From contig CAZGMS010000082.1 in the NCBI GenBank assembly GCA_964526915.1, positions 1 to 15,539 of the forward strand: a stretch of DNA of 15,539 nt, in the 5' to 3' direction. The stretch is from an uncultured Nitrospirales bacterium (GTDB lineage Bacteria; UBA10199; JADGCS01). Both the position numbers and the translations under genes were made by a program. Shown here piece by piece: positions 4,017-15,539 of this stretch. Within the stretch, counting starts at the first letter, position 1. Each line of letters opens with the position of its first letter. Under the pieces are notes generated by a model. The model saw nothing but the letters and a program-made list of their open reading frames with translations. It did no database searches and was not told where the DNA came from.

Positions 4017-5470
4017 CAAATAATCCTGAAATACCCCGAGACCACGCACCGCCTGATTTTGGTAAAGTGGCGAGCGGTGGTCACGCCCTCACCTGTGGGT
4101 GAGGCGATCGTAAAGGACGCGGGCCCTTCGCCGTCCATGCCCAATCCGGACAGAGCCATCCCGTTTTTCACAAAAATGGAGGTGCCCATCTTCACGGCCA
4201 TGTTGTGCAGGTTTTCGATATTCTTGGAATGCATGGCCGAGGTGTGGAAGCGTCCCCCCTCGAGCTCGTACGCGCAGTCGATGGCTTGATTCACATTGCC
4301 CACGCGGATGAAAGGCACCACGGGCAGGAGCATTTCGATTTGCGCGAACGGGTGTTTGTGATCGGTTTCGGTGATGGCAAGCCTGATGGCGGGGTCCACA
4401 TCAATCCCAATTTGTTTCAAGATGTGCTGAACGTCTTTGCCCACGAAATCCTTGTTGGGGTGGTCACCGTCCACAATCACTTTTTCGAGTCGTTTGGCGT
4501 GATATGGTGTGAGTTCAAACGCGCCGCTTTTCAGCAGGGCTTTTTTAAACGGATCGGCGGCTTTTTCTGTCACAATGATTTCTTTTTCGATGGCGCAAAT
4601 GATGTTGTTGTCGCAACTCGATGAGGTGATGATGTCGCGGGCGGCTTTGTCGAGATCGGCCGTTTCGTCCACCACAACAGGCGGGTTGCCGGGACCTGCC
4701 GCGACCACACGTTTGCCTGTGCCCATGGCGGCCTTGACCACAGCGGGTCCGCCGGTCACCACCAGAAGTTTAATGTCCTTGTGATTCATGAGCTGGTTGG
4801 CCGAGGCAATGGTGGGGGTCGCGATGGTGGTGAATAAATTGGGGGGGCCGCCTTCACTGATGACGGCCTGGTTCATGAGGTCAATCACAAAGACCGAGAT
4901 TTTTTTGGCTGTGGGGTGCGGGTTGAAAACCACCGTGTTGCCTGCGGCGATCATGCCGATCCCGTTGCAGATGATGGTTTCTGTGGGGTTGGTGCAGGGA
5001 GTGATGGACCCGATCACACCCCAAGGGGCCTTTTCCAAAAGGGTAAACCCGTGATCACCTGTGAAGGTTTGTGGCTCGATGTCTTCAACGCCCGGTGTTT
5101 TGTTGATGGCCAACAGATTTTTTTTGATCTTGTCTTCGACTCTGCCCAGACCGGTTTCTTCACGGGCCATCTTTGAGAGCAGTTCCACATTGGCTTTGCA
5201 GAGGTCCCTGATTTTTTGGATGATGCGTTTGCGTTGTTCGAGTGAGATTTGTTTGAAATCGTCCAGAGCCTTGACGCTGGCCGCGATGGCGTCGTCGATC
5301 GAACCAAAACAGCCACGGGAACCAGTGAACGCGGCGTCTTTTTTGGGTTCCTGTTTGGAGACGGTCGCTGTTGTGTTCGCAGGACGTCCAGCAGGCGGCG
5401 TGTCTTTGACCTGAATTTGAGACACCACCTTATCGACAATGGAACTGATTTGTTCGTCGGAGAATTTCAT
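4016..5470 (-). CDS. CoA-acylating aldehyde dehydrogenase (PduP/EutE family) with N-terminal encapsulation peptide
   Basis: 484 aa. The N-terminus MKFSDEQISSIVDKVVSQI is an encapsulation-peptide helix followed by a linker. ALDH fold with catalytic Cys region SSSCDNNIICAIEKE and the PduP-like GPGNPP motif. Confidence 0.9.
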   Translation of the reverse strand: MKFSDEQISSIVDKVVSQIQVKDTPPAGRPANTTATVSKQEPKKDAAFTGSRGCFGSIDDAIAASVKALDDFKQISLEQRKRIIQKIRDLCKANVELLSKMAREETGLGRVEDKIKKNLLAINKTPGVEDIEPQTFTGDHGFTLLEKAPWGVIGSITPCTNPTETIICNGIGMIAAGNTVVFNPHPTAKKISVFVIDLMNQAVISEGGPPNLFTTIATPTIASANQLMNHKDIKLLVVTGGPAVVKAAMGTGKRVVAAGPGNPPVVVDETADLDKAARDIITSSSCDNNIICAIEKEIIVTEKAADPFKKALLKSGAFELTPYHAKRLEKVIVDGDHPNKDFVGKDVQHILKQIGIDVDPAIRLAITETDHKHPFAQIEMLLPVVPFIRVGNVNQAIDCAYELEGGRFHTSAMHSKNIENLHNMAVKMGTSIFVKNGMALSGLGMDGEGPASFTIASPTGEGVTTARHFTKIRRCVVSGYFRII

Positions 5471-5477
5471 AGGTCAG

Positions 5478-5682
5478 CGTGAATCGTGAATCGTGGATTG
5501 TGGATCGTAAAATGGTTTGTCATCCCAGCGGAAGCTGGGATCCAGAACTGTTGACAGTAGGGATTTCTGCTTTGGTTCGACTTTGCTCACCACCCTGAGC
5601 GCCTGTCGAAGGGTCGCAGGAATGACATACCTACTCAACAATTCGCATTTCGATCCACGATCGACGACCCACAACCCACGAT
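5478..5682. repeat. MITE-like element copy A: heptad-repeat terminal inverted repeats flanking hairpin 1 plus an expanded hairpin 2
   Basis: Left end (CGTGAAT)2-CGTGGAT-TGTGGAT-CGT, then AAAATGG + GTCATCCCAGCGGAAGCTGGGATCCAGAACTGTTGACAG ... CGCAGGAATGAC...CAACAATTCGCATTTCGA. Right end TCCACGA-TCGACGA-CCCACAA-CCCACGA. It fills the whole gap between the BMC-P stop (5684) and the AldDH start (5470). Confidence 0.75.
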
Positions 5683-5683
5683 A

Positions 5684-5977
5684 TTACGGATTCTTCACAT
5701 ACCTTTTGTCGCCATCGATTTCCAAAATATCGACAATGGCCATGATGACGGCATCGACCGGTTTGTTTTCGGTTGCTTGTGTCATTCTGGCCGAGGAGCC
5801 GCTGGCGACCAAGACAACTTCGCCAACACCCGCACCGACAGAATCCGCGGCCACCACAAAACTGCCAGTGGGTTTGCCATCGGTGTCGACATATTTGACC
5901 AGTTGCAACCTGAGGCCCTCAAGTTTTTCGTCCTTGCGGGTGGCCACAACGGTTCCTACAATTTTGCCTAGTTGCAT
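5684..5977 (-). CDS. BMC vertex protein BMC-P (EutN/PduN family), paralog 3
   Basis: True start [27 protein letters not shown] at 5977. The track ORF is artificially extended into the repeat. Canonical EutN/CcmL signature. Confidence 0.85.
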
Positions 5978-5984
5978 AAAACAG

Positions 5985-6187
5985 CGTGGTTCGTGGATCG
6001 TGGGTCGTGGATCGTGGATCGAAAAATGGCTTGTCATCCCAGCGAAAGCTGGGATCCAGAACTGTTGACAATAGTCATTCCTGCTTTCGCAGGAATGACT
6101 ATCCGCTCAACAATTCGCATTTTGACCCACTATTCACGACCCACTATCCACGATTCACGACTCACGATCCACGATCCACGACCCACG
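5985..6187. repeat. MITE-like element copy B (most complete copy): 5 heptads, hairpin 1, hairpin 2, 9 heptads
   Basis: CGTGGTT-CGTGGAT-CGTGGGT-CGTGGAT-CGTGGAT, then AAAAATGGCTTGTCATCCCAGCGAAAGCTGGGATCCAGAACTGTTGACAATAGTCATTCCTGCTTTCGCAGGAATGACTATCCGCTCAACAATTCGCATTTTGA, then nine copies of NYCACGA. It sits between the BMC-H stop (6193) and the BMC-P start (5977). Confidence 0.8.
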
Positions 6188-6192
6188 AAAAA

Positions 6193-6600: not shown

Positions 6601-6717
6601 TATCGTTAAAGAAAACCACATTCAAAATCATTTTATAATAACACGAGATATTTAGTGATATATGATGCTATTTAATGGTTGATGATTAGTGCCAATTGTG
6701 ATAATCAGTTTCTAGAT

Positions 6718-6912
6718 TGCGGATTGTGGCTCGTCATTGAGAGGGTGAACTGCGTTGGAATTGCCAAAAGGCAATTTTAATACTGTGCCCCAAGGGATAC
6801 CGGGGTAATCCAGAAATGATACTGTGGATTGCTTCGATTCGCTTTGTGAATCTCGCAATGACCAGCTGTTTGTACTTTTAGACGATTCACGAACATCGAT
6901 CCACGATCCACT
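6718..6912. repeat. Degenerate copy (E) of the heptad-TIR element
   Basis: Left end GCGGATTGTGGCTCGT matches copy A CGTGGATTGTGGATCGT at about 14 of 17 positions. The internal CCCCAAGGGATACCGGGGTAATCCAGAAATGA is homologous to hairpin 1 + ATCCAGAACTGTTGA. Right end CGATTCACGAACATCGATCCACGATCCAC. Confidence 0.4.
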
Positions 6913-6918
6913 CTTCTC

Positions 6919-7104
6919 ATGCAATATTCCGAAGTCATGACAACCAACGAGGCCATGAAGTACCTCAAAATCACCCGCAAGACCCTGCTCAAATTGGTCA
7001 AAACGGGTGAGCTCAAGGGCGCCAAGGTGGGCAAGGATTATCGCTACCTCAAAAGCGAGATCGACAAGTTTCTCAAAGGGGAAAAAGAGGAACGGCTGTT
7101 TTGA
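6919..7104 (+). CDS. Excisionase-family helix-turn-helix DNA-binding protein (alternative start at 6937)
   Basis: MTTNEAMKYLKITRKTLLKLVKTGELKGAKVGKDYRYLKSEIDKFL is the excisionase/MerR-type HTH pattern. It begins right after a heptad TIR, and its stop TGA lies in a GAATCGT heptad remnant. No clear RBS. Confidence 0.6.
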   Translation: MQYSEVMTTNEAMKYLKITRKTLLKLVKTGELKGAKVGKDYRYLKSEIDKFLKGEKEERLF

Positions 7105-7113
7105 ATCGTATCT

Positions 7114-7179
7114 TGTCATCCCTGCGAAGGCAGGGATCCAGTTTCTGTCATCCCTGCGTGGTCCCTGCCTTCGCAGGGA
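7114..7179. repeat. Hairpin 1 (GTCATCCCTGCGAAGGCAGGGATCCAG) followed by a second fused hairpin (GTCATCCCTGCG-TGGT-CCCTGCCTTCGCAGGG)
   Basis: Same hairpin 1 as the MITE core but with compensatory changes in the stem (CAGC/GCTG becomes CTGC/GCAG). It sits immediately upstream of the GIY-YIG gene. Confidence 0.6.
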
Positions 7180-7199
7180 GGGAACCAGAGCATAGATTT

Positions 7200-7487
7200 A
7201 TGAAGACATACTATGTGTATATTCTTGCCAGCAAAAAAAATGGCACATTGTATGTCGGTGTTACGAGCAATTTGTCCAAAAGAATATTTGAGCACAAACA
7301 AGACCTGGTGGATGGGTTCACAAAAAAATATGGGGTTCATTCTTTGGTTTATATTGAACAAACAAATGATGTGAACGACGCATTGCTTAGAGAAAGAAGA
7401 TTGAAGGCTTGGAAGAGGCAATGGAAAATAGATCTGATTGAAAAATCGAACCCGAATTGGAACGATTTGTATGAAGATTTGTTTTAG
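7200..7487 (+). CDS. Small GIY-YIG nuclease family protein (~95 aa, COG2827-like)
   Basis: True start MKTYYVYILASKKNGTLYVGVTSNLSKRIFEHKQ (GIY...YVG motif with downstream R and E). The track ORF is over-extended upstream through the hairpins. Confidence 0.85.
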   Translation: MKTYYVYILASKKNGTLYVGVTSNLSKRIFEHKQDLVDGFTKKYGVHSLVYIEQTNDVNDALLRERRLKAWKRQWKIDLIEKSNPNWNDLYEDLF

Positions 7488-7494
7488 GAAACAT

Positions 7495-7520
7495 GGATTC
7501 CTGCTTTCGCAGGAATGACA
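7495..7520. repeat. Hairpin 2 (GGATTCCTGCTTTCGCAGGAATGACA), the MITE core second hairpin, immediately downstream of the GIY-YIG gene
   Basis: Near-identical to GTCATTCCTGCTTTCGCAGGAATGAC in copy B. The following GCTATAAATTCGG resembles the MITE GCTCAACAATTCGCA. Confidence 0.6.
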
Positions 7521-7537
7521 AAGCTTTGAGCTTTGAG

Positions 7538-7768
7538 CTATAAATTCGGACACGTCCCGCCACTACAACAACTCCCTGCCTCTGAACACGATTTGGCAGA
7601 GGGACAGGTGGCGTTTGATTTCGAGATCATCCTGCTTGGCACACTGATGAGTTTTTCCAAATCAAGGGACTCGCATTTTGGACAGGCGATGGTATTCTGA
7701 CGCGTCGTGGAGACAATCAATTCAAAAACAGCGTCACATTTTTTGCATTTGTATTCGAATAAGGGCAT
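7538..7768 (-). CDS. FmdB-family zinc-ribbon protein
   Basis: True start MPLFEYKCKKCDAVFELIV...IACPKCES (CxxC...CPxC FmdB pattern) with a Cys/Gly/Ser-rich tail. The track ORF is extended through the upstream tandem repeat. Confidence 0.75.
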   Translation of the reverse strand: MPLFEYKCKKCDAVFELIVSTTRQNTIACPKCESLDLEKLISVPSRMISKSNATCPSAKSCSEAGSCCSGGTCPNL

Positions 7769-7779
7769 GCGTCCCAATA

Positions 7780-7813
7780 CAATTGGCAATGGGCAATTGG
7801 CAATGGGCAATTG
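7780..7813. repeat. Tandem 14-mer CAATTGGCAATGGG x2.4, i.e. three palindromic CAATTG hexamers at 14-bp spacing
   Basis: Seen directly. It lies between the stop of the 889-aa gene (7837) and the start of the FmdB gene (7768). Confidence 0.7.
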
Positions 7814-10790: not shown

Positions 10791-12086
10791 ATGGATGTCC
10801 TTTTTTTGTCCCGCCTGCAATTTGCCGTGGCCACCCTGTTTCATTTTATCTTTGTCCCACTGACTTTGGGCCTCTCGATCATTGTGGCGATTTTCGAAAC
10901 ACGCTATGCCAGAACTGGTGACGAGCTTTATCTCAAGCTCACCAAATTCTGGGGCAAACTTTTTCTCATCAATTTTGCCTTGGGGGTGGTGACGGGAATC
11001 ACACTGGAGTTTCAGTTTGGGACCAACTGGTCCCGTTATTCGGCCTTTGTGGGCGATATCTTTGGATCACTGTTGGCCATCGAGGCCACGGTCGCGTTTT
11101 TTTTGGAATCCACACTCGTGGGGGTGTGGATTTTTGGCTGGCAAAAACTCTCGCCCAAAAAGCACGCGCTCATCATGTGGCTCATTGCTGTGGCGGGCAC
11201 GCTCTCGGCGGTGTGGATCATTCTGGCCAATGGGTGGATGCAGAATCCAGTGGGTTACGTGATCAAAAATGGACGGGCAGAGCTGGCAAGTTTTAGTGCC
11301 GTGTTTTTTAACAAGTACGCGTGGCTGGAGTTTTTTCACACCATGAGTGCGTCGTATTTATACAGCGCCTTTTTTGTGATGGGAGTGAGCGCGTATCATC
11401 TCATTAAAAAACAACATGTCGATTTTTTCACACGTTCTTTCAAATTGGCCCTCTGGTTTGGTCTGGTGTGTTCGGTTTTGGTGGCCTTTAGCGGTGACCT
11501 GAACGGCGTGAACGTGGCCAAAGTCCAACCTGCCAAACTCGCCGCCATGGAATCACACTGGCAAACGAGCGCCAACGCGCCCATGAAGCTTCTGGTTTGG
11601 CCCGATGAAGAGGCCGGTAAAAATGCATTTGAAGCCTTTTCGGTGCCGTCGGGATTGAGTTTGCTGGCGTTTCACGATCCTCATGCCACAGTGAAAGGGT
11701 TGCGCGATTTTGCCCAGGAGGATCGTCCACCTGTGCTCATCACCTTTGTGGCGTTCAGGGTCATGGTGGCCATTGGGGGCTTGCTGATTCTGCTTTGCGT
11801 GATCGGGGTTTTCAAACGCAACCGCCTGACCGGGTCCAAATGGTATTTGAGGGCCATGTTGTTTACCTTGCCTCTGCCTCTTGTGGCGATTGAACTCGGC
11901 TGGGTGGTGACTGAGGTGGGGCGGCAACCCTGGATTGTGTATGGGCTGATGCGCACGAGCGATGCGGTCTCGCCGGTCGTGACCTCGCAGGTGTTGACCT
12001 CGCTCATTTTCTTTTTTCTGGTTTATGGACTCTTGGGCGCTGTGGGGGTGTTGTTGATGGCAAGACACGTGAATCGTGGTTCGTGA
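10791..12086 (+). CDS. cydA: Cytochrome bd-type quinol oxidase subunit I (CydA), short Q-loop type
   Basis: MDVLFLSRLQFAVATLFHFIFVPLTLGLS...KFWGKLFLINFALGVVTGITLEFQFGTNWS...GRQPW aligns with E. coli CydA. At ~431 aa it lacks the long Q-loop insertion. The track ORF begins at an upstream in-frame TTG; ATG 10791 matches the family N-terminus. The last 5 codons and the stop lie inside the MITE. Confidence 0.93.
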   Translation: MDVLFLSRLQFAVATLFHFIFVPLTLGLSIIVAIFETRYARTGDELYLKLTKFWGKLFLINFALGVVTGITLEFQFGTNWSRYSAFVGDIFGSLLAIEATVAFFLESTLVGVWIFGWQKLSPKKHALIMWLIAVAGTLSAVWIILANGWMQNPVGYVIKNGRAELASFSAVFFNKYAWLEFFHTMSASYLYSAFFVMGVSAYHLIKKQHVDFFTRSFKLALWFGLVCSVLVAFSGDLNGVNVAKVQPAKLAAMESHWQTSANAPMKLLVWPDEEAGKNAFEAFSVPSGLSLLAFHDPHATVKGLRDFAQEDRPPVLITFVAFRVMVAIGGLLILLCVIGVFKRNRLTGSKWYLRAMLFTLPLPLVAIELGWVVTEVGRQPWIVYGLMRTSDAVSPVVTSQVLTSLIFFFLVYGLLGAVGVLLMARHVNRGS

Positions 12087-12217
12087 ATCGTTGTTCGTGG
12101 GGTGCTCTGTCATTCCAGCCTGTCAGCCATAGGACTGATCCCGCTCTGCGTGCGCTGGGATGACAAAACACATTTCGATTCACGATTCACGATCCACGAT
12201 CCACGATCTGCGAGAAT
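12068..12217. repeat. MITE-like element copy C between cydA and cydB (heptad TIRs plus a variant long hairpin)
   Basis: CGTGAAT-CGTGGTT-CGTGAAT-CGTTGTT-CGTGGGG, then GTCATTCCAGC-(34 nt)-GCTGGGATGAC, then AAAACACATTTCGA + TTCACGA-TTCACGA-TCCACGA-TCCACGA-TCTGCGA. Confidence 0.7.
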
Positions 12218-12219
12218 TT

Positions 12220-13248
12220 ATGTTTTTACAATCAATCTGGTTTTTTATTTGGGGGCTTTTATGGGCCATCTTTTTTGCGACCGATGGTTTTGATTTTGGC
12301 GTGGGCACGCTCTACCCTTTTTTGGGCAAGACAGAGCATGACAAGCGCGTGATGATCAATGCCATTGGGCCTTTGTGGGATGGCAATGAGGTGTGGCTCA
12401 TCACCGCAGGTGGGGTGACGTTTGCAGCCTTTCCTCAGGTTTACGCCGTGATGTTCTCAACGCTGTACACCCCTCTCATGATCATCTTGTTTGCGCTCAT
12501 CCTGCGCGGTGTGGCGTTTGAGTTCAGGGGCAAAGTGGATTGTCCCCGGTGGCTCAAAATTTGGGACGCAGCAATTTTTATTGGGAGTGTTTTGCCCGCT
12601 TTGTTATTTGGTGTGGCGTTTGGCAATATTTTTATGGGCATTCCGTTTGATGCTCAGGGCCTGAATCATGGCGGGTTACTCGATCTGATCAACCCGTATG
12701 GTTTACTCACGGGCTTGTTGTTTTTGCTGTTGTTCATCCAGCATGGGGCCTTGTGGCTGGCGGTGCGGTCAGGCTCTGCCCTGCATGACCGGGTCGTCAC
12801 TGTTGTGCGCACCAACTGGTTTGTTTTGCTGATAGTGGCGGTTTTGTTTTTTGTGGCCACGTATTTTGTTACGGATTTGTACGACAATTATATTGCACAG
12901 CCAGTTTTGTGGGTTATTCCTGGCCTGGTAGTTCTTTCGTTATTTGGTGTGCGTTTATTTTTGCGGCAAAAAAAATATTTATGGGCGTGGGTCGCTTCGG
13001 CGGTCACAATTGTGGGGGCCACATTTTTTGGCATCACGGGGCTTTTTCCCCGACTTTTTCCATCAAGCATAGACTCTCAATTTGATCTGACGGCGTTCAA
13101 TGCCTCGTCATCGCAGGACACACTTACCATTATGCTGGTGGTGGTGGCTGTCTTTATCCCCATAGTGATTGCATACCAAGTCTGGGCGTACCGGCTTTTT
13201 TCGCATAAAATTGACCACGACAATTTTGAGCGGGTTGTGGTGTATTGA
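12220..13248 (+). CDS. cydB: Cytochrome bd-type quinol oxidase subunit II (CydB)
   Basis: True start MFLQSIWFFIWGLLWAIFFATDGFDFGVG (DGFDxGVG CydB signature). Polytopic membrane protein. The track ORF is over-extended upstream through the repeat. Confidence 0.9.
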   Translation: MFLQSIWFFIWGLLWAIFFATDGFDFGVGTLYPFLGKTEHDKRVMINAIGPLWDGNEVWLITAGGVTFAAFPQVYAVMFSTLYTPLMIILFALILRGVAFEFRGKVDCPRWLKIWDAAIFIGSVLPALLFGVAFGNIFMGIPFDAQGLNHGGLLDLINPYGLLTGLLFLLLFIQHGALWLAVRSGSALHDRVVTVVRTNWFVLLIVAVLFFVATYFVTDLYDNYIAQPVLWVIPGLVVLSLFGVRLFLRQKKYLWAWVASAVTIVGATFFGITGLFPRLFPSSIDSQFDLTAFNASSSQDTLTIMLVVVAVFIPIVIAYQVWAYRLFSHKIDHDNFERVVVY

Positions 13249-15085: not shown

Positions 15086-15141
15086 CGTGGATCGTGAATC
15101 GTGAATCGCGGATCGTGAATCGTGGATCGTGGATCGTGGGG
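15086..15141. repeat. Heptad-repeat inverted repeat, left arm (8 x CGTGGAT/CGTGAAT) flanking the four-helix-bundle gene
   Basis: CGTGGAT-CGTGAAT-CGTGAAT-CGCGGAT-CGTGAAT-CGTGGAT-CGTGGAT-CGTGGGG, read directly. Confidence 0.75.
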
Positions 15142-15148
15142 AAGTGAG

Positions 15149-15511
15149 ATGAAAATTCAATCGTATAAAGATTTGGAAGTTTGGAAGACAGGGCTCGAGA
15201 TTGTAAAACTTGTTTACAGTGTGACCAAAAAATTCTCAAAGAGTGAGTCGTTTGGCCTGACGTCCCAAACGCAGAGAGCGGCAGTATCAATACCAACAAA
15301 TATTGCCGAAGGATTTGCGCGACGATACACAAAAGAGTTTACTCGATTTTGCTATATCGCGTTGGGTTCATGTTCAGAATTAGAAACTTTGGTGATCATT
15401 GCGAAGGAACAAACACATTTAACGGGAGATGATTTTAAGAAGTTGACAGAATTGTTGGATCACGAAAGTCGAATGTTAATGAGCCTAACCAAAAAACTGG
15501 TTAACCATTGA
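15149..15511 (+). CDS. Four-helix-bundle protein of the 23S rRNA intervening-sequence family (TIGR02436-like)
   Basis: MKIQSYKDLEVWKTGLEIVKLVY...QRAAVSIPTNIAEGFARRYTKEF...ALGSCSELETL matches the conserved pattern of IVS-encoded four-helix-bundle proteins. Confidence 0.8.
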   Translation: MKIQSYKDLEVWKTGLEIVKLVYSVTKKFSKSESFGLTSQTQRAAVSIPTNIAEGFARRYTKEFTRFCYIALGSCSELETLVIIAKEQTHLTGDDFKKLTELLDHESRMLMSLTKKLVNH

Positions 15512-15539
15512 CATCGATCCACGATCCACGATCCACGAT
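15512..15539. repeat. Heptad-repeat inverted repeat, right arm (CATCGAT-CCACGAT x3), truncated by the window end
   Basis: Reverse complement of the left-arm heptads. It begins 1 nt after the stop codon. Confidence 0.7.

Follow-up and report, generated by a model that had tools for sequence, protein, structure and literature searches.

Ssn proteins are single-domain GIY-YIG proteins of about 94 amino acids (aa) that fall under cd10448 and include SsnA (NMV_0044/NMB0047; Chenal et al. 2025, PMC11893778). They bind a 28-nucleotide (nt) hairpin, known in Neisseria as the NTS (CGTCATTCCCGCGMAVGCGGGAATCYRG) and more generally as the SRM, as single-stranded DNA only, and cut a few nucleotides 5′ of it; binding and cleavage data have been published for four enzyme-hairpin pairs (PMC11893778). 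An SRM occurs near 71% of ssn homolog genes, on both sides in 42%, and the NTS-ssnA-NTS architecture was stated to be identical to that of insertion sequences and compared with IS200/IS605, repetitive extragenic palindromes (REP) and bacterial interspersed mosaic elements (BIME) (PMC11893778). In N. meningitidis, SsnA lowers the integration of NTS-bearing transforming DNA approximately 5-fold (PMC11893778). Here we analyse a 15,539-nt stretch of DNA from an uncultured Nitrospirales bacterium (contig CAZGMS010000082.1; the whole stretch is hereafter the window), in which a small GIY-YIG gene lies between two hairpins of this kind and the same hairpins recur inside heptad-armed miniature inverted-repeat transposable elements (MITEs).

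The 23S rRNA intervening sequences (IVSs) are regarded as selfish elements. That of Coxiella burnetii encodes a PF05635-family protein, with tandem heptamers before the open reading frame (ORF), and its inverted termini form a stem that is cut by RNase III (PMC4990558). A PF05635 gene bounded by heptamers is also present in the window. We propose, with a probability of roughly 0.75, that positions 7114-7520 are an Ssn cassette and that the MITEs are derivatives of the heptad-armed four-helix-bundle (PF05635) cassette with a doublet of SRMs as their core.

An Ssn nuclease gene between SRM hairpins

The ssn unit of the window consists of the following parts:

7114-7141, plus strand: hairpin 1, the upstream SRM, 28 nt, TGTCATCCCTGCGAAGGCAGGGATCCAG; its GTCAT end points away from the gene
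7146-7188, plus strand: compound second SRM copy, made of a 5′ half TGTCATCCCTGCG, a nested inverted core CCCTGCCTTCGCAGGG and then GGGAACCAG
7200-7487, plus strand: ssn gene, encoding a 95-aa single-domain GIY-YIG nuclease (PF01541, E=4.8e-15)
7492-7520, minus strand: hairpin 2, the downstream SRM, CATGGATTCCTGCTTTCGCAGGAATGACA on the plus strand and TGTCATTCCTGCGAAAGCAGGAATCCATG on the minus strand; its GTCAT end points outward

Judged by its sequence, the 95-aa protein is a further member of the Ssn single-strand DNA nuclease family. PF01541 spans residues 4-77, with no second domain detected. Aligned to the SsnA ortholog of N. gonorrhoeae, 44 of 90 residues are identical (49%) without gaps (E=3e-34, 95% query coverage), values that, on this ortholog, lie within the family limits of PMC11893778 (blastp E<1e-10, coverage of at least 75%). 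Residues Y7, Y18 and E65 align with Y6, Y17 and E64, which were mutated in N. meningitidis SsnA (PMC11893778) and sit at the same positions in the gonococcal ortholog; Y5, Y7, Y18, G20, R28, H32, E65 and N84 are invariant across 16 homologs. NCBIfam has no specific model for the protein, its sole weak match, TIGR01453, falling below the cut-off, and the best match in a PDB search was only a weak one, to the UPF0213 protein 1ZG2 (E=0.005). The gonococcal ortholog was recovered by tblastn of a plasmid collection that included two gonococcal chromosomes. In one gonococcal record, NZ_CP119142.1 (positions 690-975 of our locus L216), a 2.17-Mb chromosome filed as a plasmid, the ATG before the ssnA ortholog and the conserved coding sequence are in different reading frames, so that the ortholog there may be frameshifted.

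The GIY-YIG ORF is bracketed by hairpins, as a sequence-only reading of the window had claimed. Hairpin 1 has an 8-bp stem, a 4-nt loop and a folding free energy of -8.5 kcal/mol as single-stranded DNA (z=-3.8), and departs from the Neisseria NTS consensus mainly in two compensatory stem changes. The compound copy (-10.7 kcal/mol, z=-2.9) ends 12 nt before the ATG of ssn, and a nested form resembling it is found in the left SRM of another ssn locus, L028. Hairpin 2 (-7.8 kcal/mol, z=-4.4) begins 4 nt past the ssn stop codon; since its reverse complement copies hairpin 1, the two constitute a terminal inverted repeat with palindromic arms. All three hairpins lie within 500 bp of ssn, on both of its sides. 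Shuffled sequence would give 0.03 occurrences of the hairpin core CCTGCNNNNGCAGG; the window has four. The hairpins fold as single-stranded DNA far better than shuffles, with z-scores of -3.8 to -11.

Directly past hairpin 2, at 7522-7542, is a tandem (AGCTTTG)x2 followed by AGCTATA, unrelated in sequence to the CGTGRAT heptads described below. Tandem repeats of the 5′ half of the hairpin alone (GTCATCCC plus approximately 10-15 nt) stand just 5′ of complete SRMs in four unrelated metagenome contigs (L090, L112, L118 and L163), and the window has one half-copy of the GTCATCCC type at 7146-7158. Such repeats might have been left behind by successive rounds of nicking and repair where Ssn cuts.

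To test the association independently, we gathered 80 ssn loci from GTDB genomes, with proteins 52-74% identical to the window protein, of which 78 were usable; they represent Patescibacteria (the candidate phyla radiation, CPR), Chloroflexi, Bacteroidota, Nitrospirae, Planctomycetota and several proteobacterial classes. Because the published SRM regular expression is too strict for variants with CCTGCG stems, we adopted a structure-based search, namely for GTCWY ahead of a perfectly paired stem of 6 bp or more, and used windows 1.2 kb away as controls. A forward hairpin lies within 200 nt upstream of ssn in 54/78 loci (controls, 2/71) and a reverse hairpin within 200 nt downstream in 52/78 (controls, 2/71), the two occurring together in 41/78. 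Hairpins of the opposite orientation were counted upstream in 13/78 loci and downstream in 18/78. Other GIY-YIG copies do therefore carry the hairpins, with an enrichment of approximately 25-fold over controls across phyla and a predominantly outward orientation. Stem sequences covary between loci with pairing kept, and exact NTS matches flank proteins 60-63% identical to that of the window at four loci (L048, L051, L055 and L068). Between ssn paralogs of the same genome, similarity stops at the outer ends of the SRMs or close to them, as is clear in a pair from Caldilineaceae. The link between hairpin and GIY-YIG gene is real, specific and general. Proteins 60-74% identical to that of the window are found in Zixibacteria, Dadabacteria, KSB1, Patescibacteria, Chloroflexi, Bacteroidota and several proteobacterial classes, a span of distant lineages that indicates frequent horizontal transfer of ssn.

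Away from ssn, exact copies of hairpin 1 number at least 84 in at least 80 loci of metagenome contigs. Among the matches listed, all of them from other organisms, approximately 5/84 stand beside an ssn gene and approximately 79/84 do not; approximately 45/84 have a convergent second SRM, its outer end 34-67 nt beyond the first hairpin, and so form gene-less doublets. None of these matches has CGTGRAT heptads beside hairpin 1, and their outer flanks are conserved within lineages only. The hairpins are dispersed, REP-like repeats strongly enriched around ssn, the pattern known from REP sequences and the genes for REP-associated tyrosine transposases (RAYTs), and in metagenomes the repeat is, among the matches listed, predominantly a convergent doublet without a gene. 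In these doublets (L087-L166) an ATCCC...GGGAT hairpin is usually partnered by an ATTCC...GGAAT hairpin, an asymmetry also seen in the window MITEs and around the window ssn; in the metagenome matches it may partly reflect ascertainment, as the search pattern fixed the first hairpin.

Heptad-armed elements at operon junctions

Four MITEs and one gene-bearing cassette in the window have heptad arms:

5478-5682, plus strand: MITE A, between the genes for aldehyde dehydrogenase and EutN; left heptad arm 5478-5509, SRM(+) 5518-5545, SRM(-) 5560-5627, right arm approximately 5652-5682
5985-6190, plus strand: MITE B, between the EutN and bacterial microcompartment (BMC) shell genes; left arm 5985-6021, SRM(+) 6032-6059, fully palindromic hairpin 2 at 6074-6100, right arm 6124-6190
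6714-6911, plus strand: MITE D, a decayed fourth copy; degenerate left arm 6714-6733, decayed SRM and spacer approximately 6789-6830, right arm 6882-6911
12068-12213, plus strand: MITE C, at the cydA/cydB junction; arms 12068-12099 and 12176-12213
15086-15539, plus strand: four-helix-bundle cassette; left arm 15086-15140, ORF 15149-15511, right arm from 15515 and running past the window end

MITEs A and B are approximately 89% identical over arms, core and tail, which identifies the copied unit as the heptad-bounded composite and not the hairpin pair; MITE C has the same arms around another core, so that it is the arms that define the family. The two hairpins that flank ssn do recur in MITE B, as the sequence-only reading had observed, divided there only by the spacer AGAACTGTTGACAATA of 14-16 nt: hairpin 2 is identical at 23/23 positions and hairpin 1 differs by one compensatory pair. 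As RNA of the transcribed strand, MITE B has a predicted fold of -115 kcal/mol (z=-10.6), with the heptad arms as a long outer stem. In MITE A, SRM(-) is split by an insert of approximately 45 nt in its loop. The core of MITE C is a single long hairpin (12108-12165), in which a 34-nt loop separates the 5′ half of an SRM from an inverted SRM half. For MITE D, 0.3% of shuffles gave a left-arm match as good, and 1.9% gave a core match as good with its parts in the right order. Neither MITEs A-C nor the four-helix-bundle cassettes show target-site duplications. The MITE copies of hairpin 1 keep GTC and the C after the palindrome and, by the mutational rules of N. meningitidis SsnA, should be Ssn substrates; the C is also retained in hairpin 2 of MITE A, which, however, has the loop insert.

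The loop insert of MITE A has an inverted repeat of its own (5570-5612), TTCGAC...GTCGAA around GCTCACCACCCTGAGCGCC; by its appearance it would be a third type of small palindromic element, nested in the MITE. At MITE C the cydA stop codon falls inside the left arm (the protein ending in ARHVNRGS) and the longest cydB ORF starts within the MITE at 12160; the true cydB start is likely 12221, as TIGR00203 matches the called ORF only from residue 20 onward. In most cases 6-8 nt separate the end of a heptad array from the adjacent start codon (5470-5478, 5977-5985 and 6911-6919 in the window; approximately 1045-1063 in L084 and 840-849 in L214), the last clean heptad at cydB (12213-12221) being approximately 18 nt away, and no Shine-Dalgarno-like sequence lies between arrays and start codons. 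This spacing suggests either that gene starts are favoured for insertion or that the arrays influence the initiation of translation.

The gene-bearing cassette at the window end has the same kind of arm. Its ORF encodes a 120-aa protein matching PF05635 (E=4e-36) and TIGR02436 (E=5e-33), the 23S-rRNA-IVS protein; the left arm has eight heptads, the last of them 9 nt from the ATG, and the right arm five, which begin 5 nt past the stop codon. The complete right arm can be seen in a further sequence, L084 (1050-1530). All clear heptad arrays in the window have (CGTGRAT)n as left arm and (ATYCACG)n as right arm, and they enclose MITEs A, B and C and the PF05635 gene. In the same metagenome-assembled genome (MAG), a 74%-identical PF05635 paralog has the identical arm type and identical junction sequences. 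PF05635 homologs on unrelated contigs have the same inverted-heptad layout, one of them inserted between nuoC and nuoD, and many homologs in databases carry N- or C-terminal extensions that are translated heptads (VDRGSW, NRES, IHDPRST). Tight heptad-armed PF05635 cassettes between unrelated genes were also noted in L084, L214 (400-850), L207, L208 and L210/L211.

The cassettes look like 23S-rRNA intervening sequences living outside rRNA, in at least two copies in this genome. They sit between protein-coding genes and not in helix 25 or 45 of 23S rRNA, where an IVS is located, and for this reason we say that the cassette works like an rRNA intervening sequence rather than that it is one. We found no published description of heptad-armed PF05635 cassettes outside rRNA, and a scan of viral contigs for the four-helix-bundle protein gave no match. 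The right sub-terminal sequence ACAT(TT)CGATYCACG is common to the four-helix-bundle cassettes and MITEs A and C. From these shared termini and sub-terminal sequences we infer that the MITEs are ORF-less derivatives; judged by termini, the four-helix-bundle cassette is a better-supported MITE parent than the GIY-YIG unit, with the hairpin doublet as probable cargo. The four-helix-bundle loci examined contain no SRMs, and the other ssn loci contain neither CGTGRAT arrays nor a four-helix-bundle gene: elsewhere, the two systems are independent. Different heptad arrays do occur at other ssn loci, such as an inverted pair approximately 1.1 kb apart in L067 (1755-1778 and 2860-2883).

These results redraw the relationship put forward in the sequence-only reading, which took the MITEs for deletion derivatives of a selfish element carrying the GIY-YIG gene and is partly supported overall. 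The heptads it regarded as a terminal-repeat remnant (ACGATTCACGAACATCGATCCACGATCCAC) are indeed present at 6882-6911, in right-arm orientation, and close MITE D; being of the ATCCACG type, where in the MITEs hairpin 1 has CGTGGAT on its left, they are ruled out as left terminal inverted repeat of a GIY-YIG element. The excisionase-family gene to which it pointed does lie upstream of hairpin 1, and is not part of the unit, since none of the 80 other ssn loci has an HTH_17 gene. The sequence after hairpin 2 (GCTATAAATTCGG), held to be homologous to the MITE tail, aligns best over a 6-mer, which is what chance provides: the score was equalled by more than 50% of shuffles and by 49% of other 50-nt window segments. 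That the MITE cores consist of the same hairpins, as doublets without a gene, is confirmed; the MITE termini, on the other hand, are not those of the GIY-YIG unit, which has no correctly oriented heptad arm on either side and no heptads after hairpin 2, and the two do not make a classical pair of MITE and parent. Nor is the relationship a new one, where that reading had suggested a new mechanism, for the pairing of hairpin and nuclease, the layout resembling insertion sequences and the analogy with REP and BIME are all in PMC11893778.

The remaining genes of the window form the setting of these elements:

Minus strand: BMC operon with deoC, two EutN genes, PduT-like, RnfC-like and aldehyde dehydrogenase genes, a further EutN gene and a BMC shell gene
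6919-7104: HTH_17 (helix-turn-helix)/excisionase-family gene, 61 aa, by profile match
Other genes: FmdB zinc-ribbon protein, an 889-aa cNMP-binding protein, cydA, cydB and AAA_14/DUF4143

The window is chromosomal DNA, and its locus recurs on short contigs from MAG GCA_035290385.1, from the AMFJ01 assembly of Rifle groundwater and from JGI sample 3300025152; all public contigs that carry these genes are shorter than 4 kb and were evidently broken at repeats. Rfam assigns no family to any window repeat, and no intrinsic terminators were found at the hairpins, terminator-type T tracts being absent. A distinct heptad array, (GGCAATT/GGCAATG)x5, occupies 7780-7813, directly past the end of the 889-aa gene and 12 nt 5′ of the start of the FmdB zinc-ribbon gene.

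Proposed origin and spread of the composite MITEs

If the window combines an Ssn cassette with derivatives of a four-helix-bundle cassette, the following course of events can be pictured. By homology to the characterised enzymes of Neisseria, N. elongata, N. wadsworthii and Wolbachia, the 95-aa protein would bind its own hairpin only in single-stranded DNA and would nick the bound strand a few nucleotides 5′ of GTCAT. Because the hairpins face outward, the two predicted nicks would fall just outside the unit and on opposite strands. The gene-less doublets in MITEs A and B could be acted on only in trans. The MITEs themselves would have arisen as ORF-less derivatives of the four-helix-bundle cassette whose interior is now an SRM doublet, and would then have been copied as composites. 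In transcripts, the heptad arms may form a long stem like the one that RNase III cleaves in rRNA intervening sequences, and since the MITEs lie in operon junctions such stems could process polycistronic mRNAs.

Several observations weigh against this proposal. No empty site or presence/absence polymorphism was found for the ssn unit, the cassettes or the MITEs, whose mobility is therefore putative; at the 889-aa gene the nearest relatives are only 53% identical and share no synteny, so that the comparison gave no insertion boundary, and a look-up of the deoC product found no record. Four paralogs in one MAG share approximately 57 nt past the right SRM, so a unit does not end with its SRMs in every case. 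The NTS copies on either side of the N. gonorrhoeae gene point inward, opposite to the window arrangement. Hairpins 1 and 2 each miss the published degenerate SRM pattern at one position (T for V), hairpin 1 of MITE B being the only strict match. A G replaces the C after the palindrome in hairpin 2 of MITE B and in the MITE C hairpin; as N. meningitidis SsnA needs this C for binding, these two may not be SsnA-type substrates. The comparison with Neisseria was made on the chromosomal ortholog of N. gonorrhoeae (94 codons) and not on N. meningitidis SsnA, CAX49033.1. Finally, three to four copies are too few to order the steps by which the composite MITE came about.

The alternative that deserves most attention, and which we consider possible but doubtful, is that Ssn is a domesticated host function that restricts or processes single-stranded DNA at SRMs, with SRMs and heptad stems kept because they are useful to the host, for example by affecting the processing or stability of BMC and cyd operon mRNAs or by controlling recombination. 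The lower integration of NTS-bearing DNA in the presence of SsnA fits such a role, as do the placement of the MITEs precisely in operon junctions, with arms ending approximately 7-18 nt from the neighbouring start codon, and the very stable RNA stems they would form. Frequent horizontal transfer, seen in Ssn proteins 60-74% identical from Patescibacteria to Proteobacteria, argues the other way, and so do the several near-identical ssn copies per genome, the decay of MITE D, the overwriting of the cydA end by MITE C and the want of terminator-like T tracts at the hairpins; a selfish origin would in any case be compatible with later use by the host. We regard it as very improbable that the parent was a heptad-armed transposon with HTH and GIY-YIG genes, the latter acting as transposase, and that the MITEs are its internal deletions. 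The near-identity of ssn-flank and MITE-core hairpins, together with the heptad array and HTH gene upstream of hairpin 1, would be accounted for; yet those heptads are right-arm oriented and pair with the degenerate left arm at 6714-6733, none follow hairpin 2, the tail homology is at chance level, heptad arms bracket a PF05635 gene twice in the genome, and the 80 other ssn loci are without HTH gene and CGTGRAT-type arrays alike.

That the hairpins are generic REP-like palindromes and stand beside a GIY-YIG gene by coincidence is scarcely credible. The preponderance of hairpin-1 matches away from ssn would agree with it, but it is contradicted by the enrichment beside ssn across phyla in a fixed orientation and by the published binding and cleavage data for four enzyme-hairpin pairs. 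Beyond our preferred reading of an Ssn cassette alongside four-helix-bundle-derived MITEs lies a bolder proposition, which we think unlikely, that the non-coding parts of two unrelated cassettes have fused into one composite MITE now spreading through operon junctions. The SRM doublets might then hitch-hike on the mechanism of the heptad arms; or Ssn might nick the embedded single-stranded hairpins and thereby start the copying of the whole composite, which, if true, would be the first evidence of an Ssn nuclease driving the spread of a repeat.

Relation to known systems

Since the biochemistry of Ssn and its layout resembling insertion sequences were published in 2025, the window ssn unit by itself changes little. 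The hairpin-nuclease unit is already described as the Ssn/SRM system, and the composite MITE is a modest new variant. What the present analysis adds is the mostly outward orientation of hairpins across 78 loci, the gene-less doublet as the dominant form among the metagenome matches listed and, in this genome, the carriage of doublets inside heptad-armed, IVS-like elements at operon junctions. A genome that holds both systems and their chimera is a convenient place to ask whether Ssn or four-helix-bundle proteins mobilise repeats.

The closest counterpart is the Ssn/NTS system itself. Shared features are a single-domain GIY-YIG protein of approximately 94 aa, a 28-nt hairpin with GTCAT on its 5′ side and ATCCAG on its 3′ side, hairpins on both flanks of the gene and further copies scattered in intergenic DNA. 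The stems differ, being CCCTGC and TCCTGC in the window and TCCCGC in the NTS; the hairpins face outward in the window and most environmental homologs and inward in N. gonorrhoeae; the host is an uncultured groundwater bacterium; and the window has copies inside heptad-armed MITEs, which are absent from the description in PMC11893778.

REP sequences, their inverted doublets (REPINs) and BIMEs, with RAYTs of the IS200/IS605-like Y1 type, offer the same picture of short inverted palindromes around a small nuclease gene, many gene-less inverted doublets dispersed between genes and single-stranded DNA hairpins as substrate. The Ssn fold, however, is GIY-YIG and not HUH/Y1, with unrelated chemistry, and we know of no strand-transfer activity for Ssn. 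In Neisseria, the RS units bounded by dRS3, which is the NTS core, are intergenic mosaic elements in which segments lie between inverted hairpins of the same family; unlike the window MITEs, they are without heptad arms.

For the cassette and its derivatives, the nearest relatives are the 23S rRNA intervening sequences with their S23p protein (PF05635, TIGR02436). The window likewise has a PF05635 ORF of approximately 120 aa, heptamers ahead of it and inverted termini that would give a long RNA stem. It differs in that its cassettes and ORF-less derivatives stand at junctions of protein-coding genes, in the BMC operon, cydAB and elsewhere, that its arms are long (CGTGRAT)n arrays, and that the derivatives carry SRM doublets.

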